NCBI RefSeq assembly: GCF_044324785.1
Contig: NZ_CP172127.1
From: Escherichia coli
GTDB taxonomy: Bacteria > Pseudomonadota > Gammaproteobacteria > Enterobacterales > Enterobacteriaceae
Direction: 5' to 3' (one strand)
DNA length: 64,000 bases
Shown here: piece after piece, positions 21,018 to 57,869 of the stretch
Layout: the number at the start of each line of letters is the position of its first letter
Numbering within the stretch: position 1 is the stretch's first letter
The notes under the pieces: model-generated
Database searches by the model: none
The model's input: the letters and a program-made list of their open reading frames with translations, nothing else
What the model was told of the DNA's origin: nothing
Translations under genes and position numbers: made by a program

Positions 21018-23408
21018 ATGGCAATTAACAATACAGGCTCGCGACGATTACTCGTCACGCTAACAGCCCTTTTTGCAGCGCTTTGCGGGCTGTATCTACT
21101 CATTGGCGGAGGCTGGCTGGTCGCGATTGGCGGCTCCTGGTACTACCCTATCGCTGGCCTTGTGATGCTCGGCGTCGCCTGGATGCTGTGGCGCAGTAAA
21201 CGCGCCGCGCTTTGGCTATACGCCGCCCTGCTGCTCGGCACCATGATTTGGGGCGTCTGGGAAGTTGGTTTCGACTTCTGGGCGCTGACTCCGCGCAGCG
21301 ACATTCTGGTCTTCTTCGGCATCTGGCTGATCCTGCCGTTTGTCTGGCGTCGCCTGGTCATTCCTGCCAGCGGCGCAGTTGCCGCTCTGGTGGTGGCGTT
21401 GCTGATTAGTGGCGGTATCCTCACCTGGGCCGGATTTAACGATCCACAGGAAATCAACGGCACCTTAAGCACCGATGCCACACCTGCCGAAGCCATCTCA
21501 CCGGTTGCCGATCAGGACTGGCCTGCGTATGGTCGCAATCAGGAAGGTCAACGCTTTTCACCACTGAAGCAAATTAACGCCGATAACGTTCACAACCTGA
21601 AAGAAGCCTGGGTGTTCCGTACAGGCGATGTGAAACAGCCGAACGATCCGGGCGAAATCACCAATGAAGTGACGCCGATTAAAGTGGGCGATACGCTTTA
21701 CCTGTGTACCGCTCACCAGCGCCTGTTTGCGCTCGATGCCGCCAGCGGCAAAGAGAAATGGCATTACGATCCTGAACTGAAAACCAACGAGTCCTTCCAG
21801 CACGTAACCTGCCGCGGCGTCTCTTATCATGAAGCCAAAGCAGAAACGGCCTCGCCGGAAGTGATGGCGGATTGCCCGCGTCGTATCATTCTTCCGGTCA
21901 ATGATGGTCGTCTGATTGCGATTAACGCTGAAAACGGCAAGCTGTGCGAAACCTTCGCCAATAAAGGCGTGCTCAATCTGCAAAGCAATATGCCGGACAC
22001 CAAGCCGGGTCTGTATGAGCCGACTTCGCCGCCGATTATCACCGATAAAACCATCGTGATGGCCGGTTCAGTCACCGACAACTTCTCAACCCGCGAAACG
22101 TCTGGCGTGATCCGTGGTTTTGATGTCAACACCGGGGAGCTGTTGTGGGCTTTTGATCCTGGTGCGAAAGATCCTAACGCAATCCCGTCTGACGAACACA
22201 CCTTTACCTTTAACTCGCCAAACTCGTGGGCACCAGCGGCCTATGACGCGAAGCTGGATCTGGTGTATCTGCCGATGGGCGTGACCACGCCGGATATCTG
22301 GGGCGGTAATCGCACACCGGAACAGGAACGTTATGCCAGCTCGATTCTGGCGCTGAATGCCACTACCGGGAAACTGGCGTGGAGCTACCAGACCGTTCAC
22401 CACGACCTGTGGGATATGGATCTTCCGGCACAGCCGACGCTGGCGGACATCACCGTTAATGGTCAGAAAGTGCCAGTTATTTACGCTCCGGCGAAAACCG
22501 GCAACATTTTTGTGCTCGATCGTCGTAACGGCGAACTGGTGGTTCCGGCCCCGGAAAAACCGGTTCCACAAGGTGCAGCGAAAGGCGATTACGTCACCCC
22601 GACCCAACCGTTCTCTGAACTGAGCTTCCGTCCGACGAAAGATTTGAGCGGTGCGGATATGTGGGGAGCCACCATGTTTGACCAGCTGGTGTGCCGCGTG
22701 ATGTTCCACCAGATGCGCTATGAAGGCATTTTCACCCCGCCATCTGAACAGGGTACGCTGGTCTTCCCTGGTAACCTGGGGATGTTCGAATGGGGCGGGA
22801 TTTCCGTTGATCCGAATCGTGAAGTGGCAATTGCCAACCCAATGGCACTGCCGTTTGTTTCGAAACTGATCCCGCGCGGTCCTGGCAACCCGATGGAGCA
22901 GCCGAAAGATGCCAAAGGCACGGGTACGGAATCCGGCATTCAGCCGCAGTACGGTGTACCGTATGGTGTCACGCTCAACCCGTTCCTCTCACCGTTTGGT
23001 CTGCCATGTAAACAGCCAGCATGGGGTTATATCTCGGCGCTGGATCTGAAAACCAATGAAGTGGTGTGGAAGAAACGTATTGGTACGCCGCAGGACAGTA
23101 TGCCGTTCCCGATGCCTGTACCGGTGCCGTTCAATATGGGTATGCCGATGCTGGGCGGGCCAATCTCCACAGCGGGTAACGTACTGTTTATCGCCGCTAC
23201 GGCAGATAACTACCTGCGCGCTTACAACATGAGCAACGGTGAAAAACTGTGGCAGGGCCGTTTACCGGCGGGTGGTCAGGCTACGCCAATGACCTATGAA
23301 GTGAATGGCAAGCAGTATGTGGTGATCTCCGCAGGCGGTCACGGTTCATTTGGTACGAAGATGGGCGACTATATTGTGGCTTATGCGCTGCCGGATGATG
23401 TGAAGTAA
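21018..23408 (+). CDS. gcd: quinoprotein (PQQ) glucose dehydrogenase, membrane-bound
   Basis: MAINNTGSRRLLVTLTALFAALCGLYLLIGGGW... N-terminal TM segments plus PQQ beta-propeller domain, 796 aa. Confidence 0.95.
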   Translation: MAINNTGSRRLLVTLTALFAALCGLYLLIGGGWLVAIGGSWYYPIAGLVMLGVAWMLWRSKRAALWLYAALLLGTMIWGVWEVGFDFWALTPRSDILVFFGIWLILPFVWRRLVIPASGAVAALVVALLISGGILTWAGFNDPQEINGTLSTDATPAEAISPVADQDWPAYGRNQEGQRFSPLKQINADNVHNLKEAWVFRTGDVKQPNDPGEITNEVTPIKVGDTLYLCTAHQRLFALDAASGKEKWHYDPELKTNESFQHVTCRGVSYHEAKAETASPEVMADCPRRIILPVNDGRLIAINAENGKLCETFANKGVLNLQSNMPDTKPGLYEPTSPPIITDKTIVMAGSVTDNFSTRETSGVIRGFDVNTGELLWAFDPGAKDPNAIPSDEHTFTFNSPNSWAPAAYDAKLDLVYLPMGVTTPDIWGGNRTPEQERYASSILALNATTGKLAWSYQTVHHDLWDMDLPAQPTLADITVNGQKVPVIYAPAKTGNIFVLDRRNGELVVPAPEKPVPQGAAKGDYVTPTQPFSELSFRPTKDLSGADMWGATMFDQLVCRVMFHQMRYEGIFTPPSEQGTLVFPGNLGMFEWGGISVDPNREVAIANPMALPFVSKLIPRGPGNPMEQPKDAKGTGTESGIQPQYGVPYGVTLNPFLSPFGLPCKQPAWGYISALDLKTNEVVWKKRIGTPQDSMPFPMPVPVPFNMGMPMLGGPISTAGNVLFIAATADNYLRAYNMSNGEKLWQGRLPAGGQATPMTYEVNGKQYVVISAGGHGSFGTKMGDYIVAYALPDDVK

Positions 23409-23413
23409 CCATA

Positions 23414-23442
23414 ATGCCCGGAGAGATCCGGGCATATTTCCG
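23414..23442 (+). terminator. hairpin after gcd (putative terminator; convergent with cueO)
   Basis: Stem atgcccgg / ccgggcat followed by atattt. Confidence 0.45.
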
Positions 23443-23454
23443 AATACTGTCTTT

Positions 23455-25005
23455 TTATACCGTAAACCCTAACATCATCCCCGTATCTTCATGCTCCAGC
23501 AGATGGCAGTGCGCCATATAAGCATGTTCTTTCGGTGCGTCGTGATTAAACTTCACCAGCACTTCACTGACATTGCCTTCTACCTTAACGGTATCTTTCC
23601 AGCCCGCGCGATGAGTCGCTGGCGGTTTGCCATTTTCTGACAAGATACGGAACTGCGTACCGTGGATATGGAACGGATGCAGCATCATGTCGCCCACGCC
23701 AGAGATAACCCAACGTTCGTACTGCCCTTTCGCCGCAGCAAACATCGGCTTGTTCATATCAAACGCCTGCCCGTTGATTTTGTTGGCATGGTGGAAATCG
23801 AACTTCCCGCCGTGGTTCATATGATTCATATTGCCGTGCCCCATATGGCCCATCATCTGGCTGTGATCCATCCCGGCCATCGCCTGATCGCCATATTTCT
23901 CCATCAGCATCTGCATACCCATCATATCGAGCATCGGGTCCATAGAGAGTTGCAGCTTGCGTACCGTCAGCCCTTCCAGCGAAGGTAACGCAGGCAGGTT
24001 ACTTAATGTGTCTGGCAAAGCACCAGAGGCACTAATGGCAATCGGCTGAATCCGCATTACCGGATGCGGCTTGTCAAACGGCGCAATCGCCATTCCCATC
24101 TGGCTGACCGGCAGCGTCACCAGGTCAAAGGGGTTGTTGTCGTTAACCTCCACCAGCACTTCAAAACGCTCGCCCATCAGCACCGGCAGTTCGCTCACCT
24201 TCACCGGTTCAGGTAGCAGACCACCGTCGCTGGCAATCACATAAAGCGGGCGATTGTCGCTGGTGGCGAAATTGAGCGAGCGGGCATTACAGCCATTGAG
24301 CAAACGCAGGCGCAGCCAGCCGCGCGGGGCAGCGTGTTGCGGGTAGATTGCACCGTTGGTCAGCAACGTATCGCCAAACCAACCCACAGCGGCGGTCATC
24401 ACATCCAGTTGATAATCAATCTGCCCGTCGGTGTTAAATTTTTTATCCTGAACAATCACCGGGACATCATCAATACCCCACTGTTTTGGCAGCATTAATT
24501 TCAGGATCTCGTCATCTTCAATTACCACCAGCCCAGCCAGCCCCATCGCCACCTGACGTCCGGTCTTGCCATGTTGATGTGGATGGAACCAGCAGGTAGC
24601 GGCAGGTTGATCAACGTTCAACGTCACCGAGCGCTTGCCACCTGGCGGAATAATTCCCTGCGGGCCGCCGTCCACTTCACCCGGTACTTCCAGCCCGTGC
24701 CAGTGCAACGTCGTCTCTTCCGTCAGTTGGTTGTAGATATCAACCGTTACCGCTTTGCCGCGCTGTAATTTCACCGCCGGCCCCAGCAAATTGCCGTTAT
24801 AGCCCCAGGTAGTTGCGGTTTTCCCGCCAAAGGTGGACTGGCCTGCGCCAATAGTTAACTGAATGCGATTACGGGCATCGGTCGTGAGCAAATCAGGGAT
24901 CGGTAACGTTGGACGTTCTGCCGCAAATACTGCGCGGCTCCACAGCGGCAAGGCTGAAGCCACACCCAGCGCGACGGAATATTTCAAGAAATCACGACGT
25001 TGCAT
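23455..25005 (-). CDS. cueO: multicopper oxidase CueO (cuprous oxidase)
   Basis: [28 protein letters not shown] Tat signal (RRDFLK); Cu-binding HWHG and [13 protein letters not shown]; Met-rich insert; 516 aa. Confidence 0.95.
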
Positions 25006-25050
25006 AGTTATTTCCTTATTCTTAAGCAGGCGAAACAAAATCAAACGTTG

Positions 25051-25081
25051 AGCATAGTCCTTCCCCTTACGGGAAGGTCAA
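25051..25081 (-). promoter_or_regulatory. MerR-type (CueR) promoter of cueO: -35 TTGACC, 19-bp spacer containing dyad CCTTCC-N7-GGAAGG, -10 TATGCT
   Basis: Plus strand agcata-gtccttccccttacgggaagg-tcaa; minus strand reads TTGACC-19bp-TATGCT, 46-76 bp upstream of the cueO ATG. Confidence 0.75.
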
Positions 25082-25170
25082 GCCGCAGACACAATTTAAT
25101 CGACAATAATGGTCGTCGCCTCGCTCGCAGTGTGCTAACGTTTATCTTCTTTAAGCCCCAGGTAGAAGCA

Positions 25171-25518
25171 ATGAAGACGTTTTTCAGAACAGTGTTATTC
25201 GGCAGCCTGATGGCCGTCTGCGCAAACAGTTACGCGCTCAGCGAGTCTGAAGCCGAAGATATGGCCGATTTAACGGCAGTTTTTGTTTTTCTGAAGAACG
25301 ATTGTGGTTACCAGAACTTACCTAACGGGCAAATTCGTCGCGCACTGGTCTTTTTTGCCCAGCAAAACCAGTGGGATCTCAGTAATTACGACACCTTCGA
25401 CATGAAAGCCCTCGGTGAAGACAGCTACCGCGATCTCAGCGGCATTGGCATTCCCGTCGCTAAAAAGTGCAAAGCCCTGGCTCGCGATTCCTTAAGCCTG
25501 CTTGCCTACGTCAAATAA
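25171..25518 (+). CDS. yacC: periplasmic protein YacC
   Basis: MKTFFRTVLFGSLMAVCANSYALSESEAED... 115 aa with signal peptide; track ORF is over-extended upstream. Confidence 0.85.
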   Translation: MKTFFRTVLFGSLMAVCANSYALSESEAEDMADLTAVFVFLKNDCGYQNLPNGQIRRALVFFAQQNQWDLSNYDTFDMKALGEDSYRDLSGIGIPVAKKCKALARDSLSLLAYVK

Positions 25519-25623
25519 TCCCTGATACCTTTTTGTAGAAATATTGACCGTGCATCCGCGGTCAATGTTAGCTATTATGTTGCGCCCTTTTTTTACGGGT
25601 GTTAACAAAGGAGGTATCAACCC

Positions 25624-26490
25624 ATGGCCGAAAAAAAACAGTGGCATGAAACGCTACACGACCAGTTTGGGCAGTACTTTGCGGTAGATAACGTTCTGTA
25701 TCATGAAAAGACCGATCACCAGGATCTGATCATTTTTGAGAACGCCGCATTTGGCCGCGTAATGGCGCTGGATGGCGTAGTACAAACCACCGAGCGCGAC
25801 GAGTTTATCTATCATGAGATGATGACCCATGTTCCGCTACTGGCCCACGGTCACGCGAAACATGTGCTGATTATCGGCGGCGGCGACGGTGCCATGCTGC
25901 GTGAAGTAACCCGACATAAAAACGTTGAGTCAATCACGATGGTGGAAATCGATGCGGGTGTCGTGTCGTTCTGCCGTCAGTATCTACCCAACCATAACGC
26001 CGGTAGCTACGACGATCCGCGCTTTAAACTGGTGATCGACGATGGCGTCAATTTCGTTAATCAAACCAGCCAGACCTTTGATGTCATTATCTCCGACTGC
26101 ACCGATCCTATCGGTCCCGGCGAAAGTCTGTTCACCTCAGCATTTTATGAAGGATGCAAACGTTGCCTGAATCCTGGCGGTATCTTCGTCGCACAAAACG
26201 GCGTCTGCTTTTTACAGCAGGAAGAGGCTATCGACAGTCATCGCAAACTCAGCCATTACTTCAGCGATGTTGGCTTTTATCAGGCGGCGATCCCGACCTA
26301 TTACGGCGGCATCATGACCTTTGCATGGGCGACAGATAACGACGCCTTACGCCATCTCTCAACCGAAATTATTCAGGCGCGTTTTCTCGCCTCTGGCCTG
26401 AAATGCCGTTATTACAATCCGGCAGTCCATACGGCAGCTTTTGCCTTACCCCAGTATCTGCAAGACGCACTGGCTTCACAGCCGTCCTAA
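25624..26490 (+). CDS. speE: spermidine synthase
   Basis: [40 protein letters not shown]... and [11 protein letters not shown] motif, 288 aa. Confidence 0.95.
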
Positions 26491-50327: not shown

Positions 50328-50420
50328 GTCTGATGCGACGCTGGCCTGATAAGACGCGCCAGCGTCGCATCGGGCATCTTGTGCAAATGTTGGATGCGGC
50401 ATAAACGCCTATCCGACATA
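50328..50420. repeat. REP (repetitive extragenic palindrome) cluster between yacG and mutT
   Basis: tgatgcgacgctgg...ccagcgtcgcatc palindrome and a second degenerate unit ggatgcggcataaacgcctatccga matching the REP core GCCGGATGCGGCG family. Confidence 0.8.
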
Positions 50421-50821: not shown

Positions 50822-50850
50822 AAAAAAGGCGCAGAATCCTGCGCCTTTTA
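50822..50850 (-). terminator. Rho-independent terminator after secA
   Basis: Minus strand: stem aaaggcgcag gatt ctgcgccttt followed by ttta. Confidence 0.7.
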
Positions 50851-50866
50851 CTTCAACTGTTAGCTT

Positions 50867-53572
50867 TTATTGCAGGCGACCATGGCACTGCTTGTATTTT
50901 TTACCAGAACCGCACGGGCAAGGATCGTTACGTCCTACTTTGCGCTCACCGGTTTGCGCCGCCAGTGCAGCTGCGGCTGCAGAGTCGTCATCCTGATGGC
51001 TAAGCTGCTGCATTTGCGCTAAACGCTCGGCTTCCATACGACGCTGTTGTTCCAGCTCCTCAACCTCTTCAGGCATACGTACCTGAACTTTGCTCAGCGT
51101 GCTGATAACTTCATATTTCAACGACTCCAGCATCGCTGCAAACATGGAGAACGATTCACGTTTGTATTCCTGCTTCGGATCTTTCTGTGCATAGCCACGC
51201 AGGTGGATACCCTGACGCAGATAGTCCATCGCTGCCAGGTGCTCTTTCCACAGGGAGTCAAGCGTTTGCAGCATGACGCCTTTCTCGAAGTGACGCATCA
51301 TCTCAGCACCAACCACTTCTTCTTTACGCTGATACACTTCGATGGACTGCGCCAGAATGCGCTCACGCAGCGTCTCTTCATGCAGTTCTGGTTCTTTATC
51401 CAGCCACTCGGCAATTGGCAAATCGAGGTCGAAATCGTTCTTCAGACGTTCCTGCAGCCCCGGAATATCCCACATTTCTTCCAGCGACTGTGGCGGAATG
51501 TAGGCATCAATGGTCGCTTTGAACACATCTTCACGAATGCTGTTGATGGTTTCGCTCACATCGCTGACATCCAACAGTTCGTTACGCTGGGAGTAAATGG
51601 CGCGACGCTGATCGTTAGCCACGTCATCATATTCCAGCAGTTGCTTACGAATGTCGAAGTTACGACTTTCAACTTTACGCTGGGCGTTGGCAATCGCTTT
51701 AGTCACCCACGGGTGTTCAATGGCTTCGCCTGGCTTCATACCCAGTTTACGCATCATGCCGGATACTCGGTCGGAAGCAAAAATACGCATCAGCGCATCT
51801 TCCATCGACAGGTAGAAACGGGAAGAACCAGCATCCCCCTGACGACCAGAACGACCGCGCAACTGGTTATCGATACGACGGGATTCGTGACGCTCGGTAC
51901 CGATGATATGCAGGCCACCTGCTGCCAGTACCGCATCGTGACGTACCTGCCAGTCGGCTTTAATTTTTTCAATTTGCTCTGCGGTCGGATTTTCCAGCGC
52001 GGCAACTTCTGCCTGCCAGCTACCACCGAGCACAATATCTGTACCACGACCCGCCATGTTGGTCGCGATAGTCACCGCAGCCGGATAACCTGCCTGAGCA
52101 ACAATCGCCGCTTCGTTGGCATGGAATTTGGCGTTCAGGACATTGTGCTTAATACCGGCTTTGGTCAGTTCGTTTGACACCAGCTCCGATTTTTCGATGG
52201 AGATAGTACCCACCAGCACCGGCTGGCCTTTCGCAGTACGCTCTTTGATATCTTCAATGATCGCCTGAATTTTTTCCGCTTCAGTCATGTAGACCAGGTC
52301 CGGCAGATCTTTACGAATCATTGGACGGTTGGTCGGAACAACGACGGTATCCAGCTTGTAGATGGAGCTGAATTCGAAAGCTTCGGTATCAGCAGTACCG
52401 GTCATCCCCGCCAGTTTTTCATACAGACGGAAGTAGTTCTGGAAAGTGATCGACGCCAGCGTCTGGTTTTCGTTCTGGATCTGTACACCTTCTTTCGCTT
52501 CCACAGCCTGGTGCAGGCCATCGGACCAACGACGTCCCTGCATGGTACGACCGGTGTGTTCGTCAACGATGATAACTTCACCATCTTTAACGATGTAGTC
52601 GACGTCTCGGGTAAACAGCGCATGAGCGCGCAGCGCCGCCGTTACGTGGTGCATCAGCATGATGTTGGCCGGAGAGTACAGAGACTCCCCTTCATCCATG
52701 ATGCCTTCTTTCACCAGCAGTTCTTCAATCAGCACCAGACCACGTTCGGTCAGGTTCACCTGGCGAGATTTTTCGTCCACCGAGAAGTGGCCTTCGCCCT
52801 GGAAGGTTTCGGAGTCTTCTTTTTCCTGACGGATCAGGTGCGGAATAATTTTATTCACGCGTTTATACATTTCCGAGCTGTCTTCTGCCGGGCCGGAAAT
52901 GATCAGCGGTGTACGCGCTTCATCGATCAGGATGGAGTCCACTTCGTCCACCAGCGCATAGTGCAGTTTACGCTGTACACGTTCTTCAGGGCTGAACGCC
53001 ATGTTATCGCGCAGGTAGTCAAAGCCGTATTCGTTGTTCGTACCGTAAGTGATGTCAGCTGCGTAAGCTTCACGCTTCGCCGGTGCTGGCATGCCCGGCA
53101 GGTTGATACCGACAGTCAGGCCAAGGAATTCAAACAGCGGACGGTTGTTTTCGGCGTCACGTTGCGCCAGGTAGTCGTTGACGGTAACAACGTGTACGCC
53201 CTTACCGGTTAATGCGTTCAGGTAAGCAGGCAGCGTTGCGGTCAGGGTTTTACCTTCACCGGTACGCATTTCGGCGATGCAGCGTTCGTTAAGAACCATA
53301 CCGCCGAGTAACTGAACGTCGAAGTGACGCATACCAAAGACGCGCTTACTTGCCTCACGCACCACGGCGAAAGCTTCCGGGATCAGATTTTCCAGCACTT
53401 CGCCTTTTTCCAGACGTGCACGAAACTCTGCGGTTTTCCCTTTCAGTTCTTCGTCGGAGAGTTTTTCCATCTCCGGTTCCATGGCATTGATGATGTTGAC
53501 CACTTTGCGCATCCGGCGCAGGGTGCGATCGTTACGACTACCGAAAACTTTAGTTAATAATTTGATTAGCAT
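50867..53572 (-). CDS. secA: preprotein translocase ATPase SecA
   Basis: [43 protein letters not shown]... 901 aa, C-terminal zinc-binding [14 protein letters not shown]. Confidence 0.97.
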
Positions 53573-55394: not shown

Positions 55395-56546
55395 TTAATC
55401 AGCTTGCTTACGCAGGAATGCTGGGATATCCAGATAATCCGGCTCTTTCGCAGTTTGCGGTGCATTGTCATTCACGACTTTAGCAACCGGCTTCTGCTCC
55501 TGGGTCAGCGGAGCCATCCCGTGCTGCTGGTAGCGATCCATCACTGGCTGCTGAACCTGCTTATTGGTCACCAGAGTGATTTCAGGACGTTTGTCCATGC
55601 CGATACCTGTCGCAACAACAGTTACGCGCAGCTCGTCATTCATATCCGGGTCAAGAGAAGTACCGATAACCACAGTCGCGTTGTCGGAAGCAAATGCACG
55701 GATGGTGTTACCTACCGTTTCGAACTCATCCAGACGCAGGTCGAAGCCCGCCGTGATGTTAACCAGCACGCCGCGTGCGCCAGACAGGTCGATATCTTCC
55801 AGCAGCGGAGAAGAGATAGCCATTTCAGCAGCTTCTTCCGCACGGTCTTCACCACTCGCCACGCCAGAACCCATCATTGCGTAGCCCATTTCAGACATTA
55901 CGGTGCGTACGTCTGCAAAGTCCACGTTCATCAAACCCGGACGAGTAATCAGTTCAGCGATACCTTGCACAGCGCCTTTCAGTACATCGTTCGCTGCGCC
56001 AAACGCATCCAGCAGGGAGATACCGCGGCCCAGAACTTTCAGCAGTTTGTCGTTCGGGATAGTGATCAGAGAGTCCACATGTTTGGACAGTTCAGTGATC
56101 CCCTGCTCCGCGAATGCCATACGCTTCTTGCCTTCAAAGTTGAAAGGCTTAGTGACGACAGCAACGGTCAGGATACCCAAATCTTTTGCCACTTCAGCGA
56201 CGACTGGTGCTGCACCTGTACCGGTACCACCACCCATACCCGCTGCGATAAAGACCATGTCTGCACCTTCCAGCGCCGCACGCAGTGCATCGCGATCCTC
56301 ATCAGCCGCATTACGGCCAACTTCTGGATTAGCGCCAGCGCCCAGTCCTTTGGTGATACCGCTACCGATTTGAATCGTCTGTCCAACCGCTGTTTTACGC
56401 AGCGCTTGTGCATCGGTATTTACCGCGAAGAATTCAACACCTTCAATGCGCTCGCGCACCATGTGTTCAACAGCATTACCGCCGCCGCCGCCGACGCCGA
56501 TGACTTTAATCACCGCGTCATTGGTAAGTTCCATTGGTTCAAACAT
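55395..56546 (-). CDS. ftsZ: cell division GTPase FtsZ
   Basis: [30 protein letters not shown]... tubulin signature [10 protein letters not shown], 383 aa. Confidence 0.98.
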
Positions 56547-56606
56547 AGTTTCTCTCCGATTTGTGCCTGTCGCCTGAGGCCGTAATCATCGTCGGCCTCA
56601 TAAAAA

Positions 56607-57869
56607 TTAAAACTCTTTTCGCAGCCAACTATTGAGTCGCTTGATCCACGAGCCAACTGATGCTGTAACACGTTTTTCTACTTCAGCTTCACCGTTAAGA
56701 TGTGACTCTTTCCCATAGTGAAGCAATCCCACCGCCGTCGAATAATACGGCTCCTGAGCATAATCCGTTAAACCGGTAATGTTCAGCGGCGCGCCGATAC
56801 GCACTTGCGTATGAAACACGCGCTGAGCACAGGCTGCAAGACCTTCGATCTGCGCTGCGCCACCAGTTAAAACAATGCCTGCCGCCAGGTGATGTTTAAC
56901 CCCTTGTTGGCGAAGCTTTTCCTGCAACTGCAATATCTCTTCGTTGACCAGGTTGAGCAGCTCGGTATAGCGCGGCTCGATCACCTCTGCCAGGGTCTGA
57001 CGTTGCAGACTCCGCGGCGGACGACCACCTACGCTCGGCACTTCCACGCTCTCATCTTTTCCAACGATGGAACCCAGCGCACAACCGTGGCGAACTTTAA
57101 TCGCTTCGGCGTCGCTTGGCGGCGTGCCAAAGGCGTAAGCGATATCACTGGTCACGACATTGCCAGCATAAGGAATTACCTTAGTGTGGCGCAATGCCCC
57201 ACCGGTATAAACGGCGATATCCATTGTACCACCACCGATATCGACGACGCAGACACCCAGTTCACGTTCATCTTCCGTCAATACCGAATAACTTGATGCC
57301 AGTCCGGCAAATATCAGTTGGTCAACTTTCAGCCCACAACGTTCAACCGCTTTGACGATGTTTTTCGCCATATCGTTGTGACATGTGATCAGGTGCACTT
57401 TTGCCTGCATCCTCACGCCCGAAAGTCCTACCGGATTCTTGATCCCTTCCTGATAGTCAATCGCATACTCTTGCGGGATCACATGCAGCACACGATGCTC
57501 ATCGCGCACACGCACCGATTTCGCGGTATGGACGACGTTTTCCACATCTTCTTGCGTCACTTCTTCTTCAGAAATAGGCACCATACCAATTTCATTCTGG
57601 CAGCTGATGTGCTTACCAGAAAGCGCCAGATATACCGAAGAGATCTGACAATCTGCCATCAATTCTGCCTGGTCAATGGCGCGTTGTACGCACTTGACCA
57701 CGGATTCGAGGTCGTTCACCCCGCCTTTATCCATACCACGTGACGGGCAGCTGCCCACGCCAATGATATTGACCATACCGTCGGGCAGAACTTCCCCTAC
57801 TAAAGCGGCAACCTTCGCGGTACCAATCTCCAGTCCTACTACCAGTTTTCTGTCCGTCGCCTTGATCAT
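56607..57869 (-). CDS. ftsA: cell division protein FtsA (actin-like ATPase)
   Basis: [53 protein letters not shown]... 420 aa. Confidence 0.97.

Follow-up and report, generated by a model that had tools for sequence, protein, structure and literature searches.

The question raised by this locus is whether a copper oxidase gene, which is preceded by a promoter with an overlong spacer and a dyad, is cueO under the control of the regulator CueR. The window is the whole 64-kb stretch of DNA that was analyzed. The original prediction had assigned the range 23800-25081 to cueO and a MerR-type promoter. This range reaches only from the -35 hexamer through the Met-rich segment, but the coding sequence continues to position 23455. 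We regard it as nearly certain that the region represents the Escherichia coli cueO gene with a CueR-dependent promoter. The anatomy of the promoter, its statistical uniqueness, its register in comparison to PcopA, its conservation and the identity of the protein were determined in this study, and the binding of CueR together with copper induction, the export by the Tat system and the enzymology are taken from the literature. No evidence contradicting this explanation was found. The gene and the two segments of its product which are discussed below are the following:

23455-25005, minus strand: coding sequence of cueO, encoding a periplasmic multicopper (cuprous) oxidase of 516 amino acids plus stop codon (Pfam, PDB, NCBIfam, and RefSeq).
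24922-25005, minus strand: Tat signal peptide, amino acids 1-28 (MQRRDFLK...AVFA/AERP), placed by the invariant RR pair and the start of the mature chain.
23943-23809, minus strand: Met/His-rich segment, amino acids 355-399, 45 residues including 14 methionines and 5 histidines (recount of the translation).

The product matches the CueO chains in the PDB over all 516 residues and reaches 979.7 bits with the NCBIfam CueO equivalog NF008205, which has a cut-off of 525. Furthermore, the three cupredoxin/Cu-oxidase domains PF07732, PF00394, and PF07731 were all found above their Pfam cut-offs. In the RefSeq annotation the same locus is also named cueO and is flanked by gcd and yacC-speE-speD-yacL-acnB. 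The PDB match, the NCBIfam score and the RefSeq annotation therefore bear out the gene name that had been proposed. The copper-ligand motifs HxH (residues 101/103), HxH (141/143), HxxHxH (443/446/448), and HCHxxxHxxxxM (499-510) are all present and do not vary in any of the 81 sequences compared. The same holds for the 12 ligands of the copper centers T1, T2, and T3, the four ligands of the substrate copper (M355, D360, D439, and M441) and the RR pair of the signal peptide.

The cueO gene of E. coli K-12 (yacK, b0123) has the same neighbors (gcd, yacC, speED, yacL, and acnB) and encodes a protein of the same length of 516 amino acids. The window comes from an E. coli chromosome other than that of K-12, and its orientation is the reverse of that of K-12. 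Five substitutions distinguish the window protein from the CueO of K-12 and the PDB (S191N, A192T, K291N, S336N, and A464T), all of which lie outside of the Met-rich segment and affect no copper ligand. Upstream of the start codon, 170 bp differ from a K-12-like genome at only one base (25160), which lies outside of the promoter.

The N-terminus of CueO carries the twin-arginine motif RRxFLK (QRRDFLK), followed by a hydrophobic stretch and a VFA/A cleavage site, and the crystallized CueO chains begin at residue 29. The Tat signal, which was also part of the original prediction, is thereby supported by the motif, by its invariant arginines and by the start of the mature chains. The Pfam profile TAT_signal scored 21.1 bits against a cut-off of 22.7 (E = 2.9e-4). 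CueO is a model substrate of the Tat system (PMC13323110; PMC11494321), and its residues 1-28 served as signal peptide in a cryo-EM study of Tat (PMC13323110).

The Met/His-rich segment, whose peptide had been quoted exactly, is located between the Pfam Cu-oxidase domain matches. A CueO structure from which this segment was deleted (PDB 2yxv) aligns with the window protein in two stretches. In the 81 enterobacterial orthologues the segment has a length of 18 to 75 amino acids, with the variation lying in the distal part, which consists of Met, His, Gly, and Asn. The proximal half (an 11-residue stretch, ...YG..AM.GM) is conserved, and the proximal stretch and the substrate copper (sCu) ligands are invariant. 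Counted between the alignment anchors 355 and 400, the E. coli segment comprises 46 amino acids and is slightly shorter than the median of 51. Orthologues of CueO whose Met-rich domain is larger or smaller, e.g., that of Hafnia alvei (PMC12041951), resemble E. coli CueO in the Tat signal, the three cupredoxin domains, the proximal Met-rich helix and the invariant sCu site. They differ from it in the length of the distal Met/His-rich part. The role of the Met-rich insert over the T1 site and of the ligands M355, D360, D439, and M441 has been described, with Cu5 being the sole site of cuprous oxidation in CueO and the Met-rich domain being dispensable for catalysis but helping to recruit strongly chelated Cu(I) (PMC11494321).

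Among these orthologues, the CueO of Trabulsiella odontotermitis (locus L082:1501-2967) consists of 489 amino acids with only 18 residues in the segment, which makes it a natural near-deletion. The segment of Kosakonia quasisacchari (locus L052:2637-2780) has 75 residues and is built on a 45-bp tandem repeat with 2.9 copies. A search of the E. coli Met-rich DNA detected no tandem repeat. Antisense to the Met-rich segment lies a His-rich ORF of 108 amino acids (23662-23988, plus strand), which was rejected as a gene, since the ATG codons of cueO are mirrored there as CAT, the codon for histidine.

The elements of the region upstream of cueO were placed as follows:

25081-25076, minus strand: -35 hexamer TTGACC (scripted recount).
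25075-25057, minus strand: spacer TTCCCGTAAGGGGAAGGAC, 19 bp, 2 bp longer than the sigma-70 optimum (scripted recount).
25056-25051, minus strand: -10 hexamer TATGCT (scripted recount).
25077-25059, no strand: putative CueR operator, dyad CCTTCC-CGTAAGG-GGAAGG, i.e., CCTTCC-N7-GGAAGG (recount and published box).
25006-25044, minus strand: predicted 5′ untranslated leader of approximately 38-41 nt, placed from the -10 hexamer.
25018-25013, minus strand: Shine-Dalgarno-like sequence TAAGGA, of which the AAGGA block is kept across species and the rest of the leader is not.

The arrangement TTGACC-19 bp-TATGCT, which had been read on the minus strand, was reproduced exactly by the scripted recount (25081-25051), and both the 19-bp spacer and the dyad were found again. 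The dyad had been described as lying within the spacer. It is indeed present, but its left arm overlaps the spacer boundary and shares the last 2 bp (CC) of the -35 hexamer, and its right end is located 2 bp before the -10 hexamer. The perfect dyad symmetry reaches one base further inward on each side, which corresponds to a 7-N5-7 structure (CCTTCCC GTAAG GGGAAGG). The distance from the end of the -10 hexamer to the ATG at position 25005 is 45 nt.

An in-frame TTG at position 25044, which would extend CueO by 13 amino acids, was rejected as start codon, as it lies at or upstream of the predicted transcription start. It is also disfavored since CueO starts with the ATG at 25005 in both RefSeq and the PDB, and the conserved Shine-Dalgarno sequence precedes this ATG. 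Additionally, a control of the leader by an upstream ORF or a small RNA ('CruR'/FnrS) was rejected, as CruR, according to the literature, belongs to Bordetella and has no relation to cueO of E. coli.

The promoter was compared with the published sites of CueR. In the cryo-EM study of activation by CueR, the spacer of PcopA measures 19 bp, its CueR core box reads CCTTCC-N7-GGAAGG, and 2 bp separate this box from the -10 hexamer. Moving the box by 1 bp impaired activation (PMC8169799). The box upstream of cueO is an exact match to this core box, and it is placed in the same register as in PcopA. By comparative genomics, the CueR signal was described as ACCTTCCC-(5)-TGGAAGGT in promoters with 19-bp spacers, and cueO was assigned to the CueR regulon of E. 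coli, Salmonella, and Yersinia (PMC1526738). In total, four publications name cueO as a member of the CueR regulon (PMC8169799; PMC12510620; PMC9909328; PMC1526738).

For a direct comparison, the copA promoter was taken from an E. coli genome, its position just upstream of copA was verified, and both promoters were aligned on the -35 hexamer. They share the -35 hexamer TTGACC, the 19-bp spacer, the start of the box 4 bp into the hexamer and the 2-bp gap, and 22 of 31 bases are identical. In contrast, the central 7 bp read CGTAAGG in cueO and CCTTGCT in PcopA, the -10 hexamers are TATGCT and TAACCT, and the distance between the -10 hexamer and the ATG is 45 nt for cueO and 39 nt for copA. Other metal-responsive promoters of the MerR family (MerR, ZntR, HmrR, and CadR/PbrR) likewise possess an overlong spacer of 19-20 bp that contains a dyad operator, and they are activated by a distortion of the DNA (PMC1526738; PMC9909328). 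Compared to these, the cueO operator is specific to the CueR/HmrR branch (ACCTTCC...GGAAGGT type), with Cu(I), Ag(I), or Au(I) as effector.

Of the 5426 complete E. coli genomes, 5424 contain the 53-bp promoter, 5258 of them with at least 99% identity. The cross-species set comprised one genome per species, which resulted in 80 enterobacterial cueO loci. The MerR-type layout that had been proposed is kept in the orthologous loci, as TTGAC(C/G)-19 bp-TAnnCT with the box in register was found in 79 of the 80 species. The -10 hexamer follows the pattern TAnGCT in 78 of these 79, the exception being E. albertii with TATCCT, and spacer lengths other than 19 bp did not occur with these hexamers (78 loci). 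The mean identity to the window amounts to 0.835 over the 31-bp promoter, compared to 0.59 upstream of it and 0.43 in the leader. Among 46 distinct enterobacterial promoters, TTGAC and TAnGCT are invariant, as are the positions C5, T8, C10, G18, A20, G22, and G23 of the box, and C6 is kept in 45. The conserved core is symmetric about the center of the dyad (CCnTnC...GnAnGG, half-site positions 1, 2, 4, and 6). The half-site positions 3, 5, and 7 are complementary in only 28%, 65%, and 43% of the cross-species promoters, respectively. This footprint, with its invariant 19-bp spacer and the symmetric core, is a clean illustration of the MerR-type rule. Across the enterobacterial cueO promoters, the -10 hexamer alternates between TATGCT and TAAGCT.

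These data also bear on the question whether the dyad could be a chance palindrome or a structural hairpin of the DNA or RNA, with the promoter being an ordinary constitutive sigma-70 promoter. The hexamers TTGACC and TATGCT are reasonable matches to sigma-70, but the probability of this reading is practically nil. With up to one mismatch, the 12-base dyad occurs once in the 64-kb window against an expectation of 0.08, and the composite pattern TTGACCTTCC-N7-GGAAGG-NN-TANNNT occurs once with up to two mismatches against an expectation of 0.00. The same composite of -35 hexamer, box and -10 hexamer was found in none of 100 shuffles. In addition, a constitutive promoter is at odds with a 19-bp spacer that is preserved in all but one of the 80 species. 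A conventional promoter scan of the region 23200-25700 found no promoter with 16-18 bp spacers. It misses the cueO promoter because it only admits spacers of this length, and its empty result fits with the cueO promoter not being a normal sigma-70 promoter. For a hairpin, an upkeep of the stem would matter, whereas here complementarity is often lost at the half-site positions 3, 5, and 7 and the positions 1, 2, 4, and 6 are fixed, which fits base-specific contacts by a protein. Such a symmetric and base-specific conservation is as predicted for a homodimeric DNA-binding protein and argues against a hairpin role. Moreover, the dyad is located upstream of the predicted start site and is therefore absent from the cueO mRNA.

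The dyad could also be the operator of a different regulator of the MerR family, such as ZntR, SoxR, or a GolS-like gold sensor, which we consider extremely unlikely. The operators of ZntR and SoxR differ in sequence, and E. coli is not known to possess GolS. The box furthermore equals the CueR core sequence exactly and has the register of PcopA, although all activators of the MerR family use dyads in promoters with spacers of 19-20 bp, and Salmonella has a paralogue of CueR with a CueR-type site (PMC1526738). It is somewhat less improbable, but still very unlikely, that CueR bound at 25059-25077 additionally represses or activates the divergent yacC-speE-speD side. The two genes share an intergenic region of 168 bp, in which the yacC start (25174) is approximately 100 bp away from the box, and yacC is the divergent neighbor of cueO both in E. 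coli and in Klebsiella. A second conserved block (25120-25175), which adjoins the yacC start, would be compatible with such a control, but it can be explained by the start codon, the ribosome-binding site and the promoter of yacC itself, the latter two of which it presumably represents. In addition, no second CueR box was found within the 64-kb window by the dyad search with up to one mismatch, and the CueR targets given in the literature consulted are only copA and cueO. The product of yacC is a PulS/OutS-like protein related to pilotins.

Returning to the preferred explanation of a CueR-dependent cueO promoter, the literature suggests that a CueR homodimer would sit on the dyad between the -35 and the -10 hexamer. 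With a spacer of 19 bp instead of 17 bp, the distance between the hexamers would be too large for sigma-70 and their phase would not match, and it is proposed that the basal transcription is poor because of this false spacing and phasing. CueR loaded with Cu(I), or with Ag(I) or Au(I), would then kink and undertwist the spacer and thereby realign the hexamers, and the metal-bound regulator would contact the non-conserved region of sigma-70, by which the promoter is switched on (PMC8169799; PMC9909328). The resulting CueO would be synthesized with its twin-arginine signal (amino acids 1-28) and exported by the Tat system into the periplasm, where the multicopper oxidase is expected to oxidize Cu(I), yielding the less toxic Cu(II). 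Next to the substrate copper site (Cu5/sCu; M355, D360, D439, and M441) lies the Met-rich segment, whose many methionines may help to recruit tightly chelated Cu(I).

The gene cueO, its CueR promoter, the Tat signal and the Met-rich domain belong to the textbook copper homeostasis of E. coli, for which structures have been solved. The statement of the original prediction that there is nothing novel here was thus appropriate, as gene and promoter have already been characterized. The locus is of use as a positive control, which demonstrates that a MerR-type promoter can be recognized correctly from the raw sequence.

The promoters of the different genera vary in two respects. The right arm of the box reads GGAGGG in 32 of the 46 distinct enterobacterial cueO promoters, and therefore the form GGAAGG of E. 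coli (25059-25064), which is symmetric with the left arm, is a minority state. A perfectly symmetric box was found in Escherichia and some Citrobacter. Furthermore, the -10 hexamer and the ATG are separated by 43-45 nt in Escherichia and Citrobacter and by 33-36 nt in the other genera. The leader of Escherichia and Citrobacter (25006-25050 in the window) thus has approximately 10 extra nucleotides, which are poorly conserved. The symmetric box and the longer leader of Escherichia could shift the copper set-point of cueO or add a post-transcriptional layer, or else the box could affect the divergent yacC-speED genes, but this idea is considered unlikely.

Of the 80 species, only Intestinirhabdus alba (locus L075:1200-1500) lacks a CueR-type promoter in the 300 bp preceding cueO. 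The ribosome-binding site of its cueO gene is immediately preceded by a stretch of approximately 263 bp with 17-bp inverted repeats (GCTGTGTCCCTTAACCG) at its ends. This stretch resembles a small element whose insertion displaced or replaced the cueO promoter. The sequence upstream of cueO was also found in a few records labeled as plasmids, with 10 places for a 241-bp query and three for the 53-bp promoter (e.g., NZ_CP116983.1, 38901-38995). These matches may be chromosomal segments on plasmids or replicons that were assigned wrongly.

Downstream of cueO, a further structure was identified:

23414-23435, no strand: GC-rich hairpin with a 9-bp stem (-17.7 kcal/mol, z = -3.5).

This hairpin is located in the 46-bp gap between the convergent genes cueO and gcd and is possibly a terminator shared by both. 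It is not flanked by a U tract on any side, and the terminator scan calls no terminator after cueO, which is why a terminator function can only be inferred.

The gene cueR itself was not found in the 64-kb window by tblastn. In K-12-like E. coli it is located beside copA-glsA-ybaT, approximately 375 kb away, and other E. coli genomes suggest that this genome carries cueR, too. In E. coli O157:H7 (L083; NZ_AP018488.1, 572600-573600), a frameshifted pseudogene of the TolC family follows ybaT at the place where cueR is found in K-12-like strains, which points to an insertion that separates ybaT from cueR in the O157:H7 lineage.

Finally, no known RNA family was assigned to cueO or its surroundings by an Rfam scan. 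Elsewhere in the window, the scan yielded four matches at the gathering score:

56538-56627, minus strand: PssrA (105.5 bits).
38956-39069, plus strand: tp2 (103.4 bits).
50822-50891, minus strand: STnc40 (81.7 bits).
50343-50418, minus strand: naRNA4 (63.6 bits).
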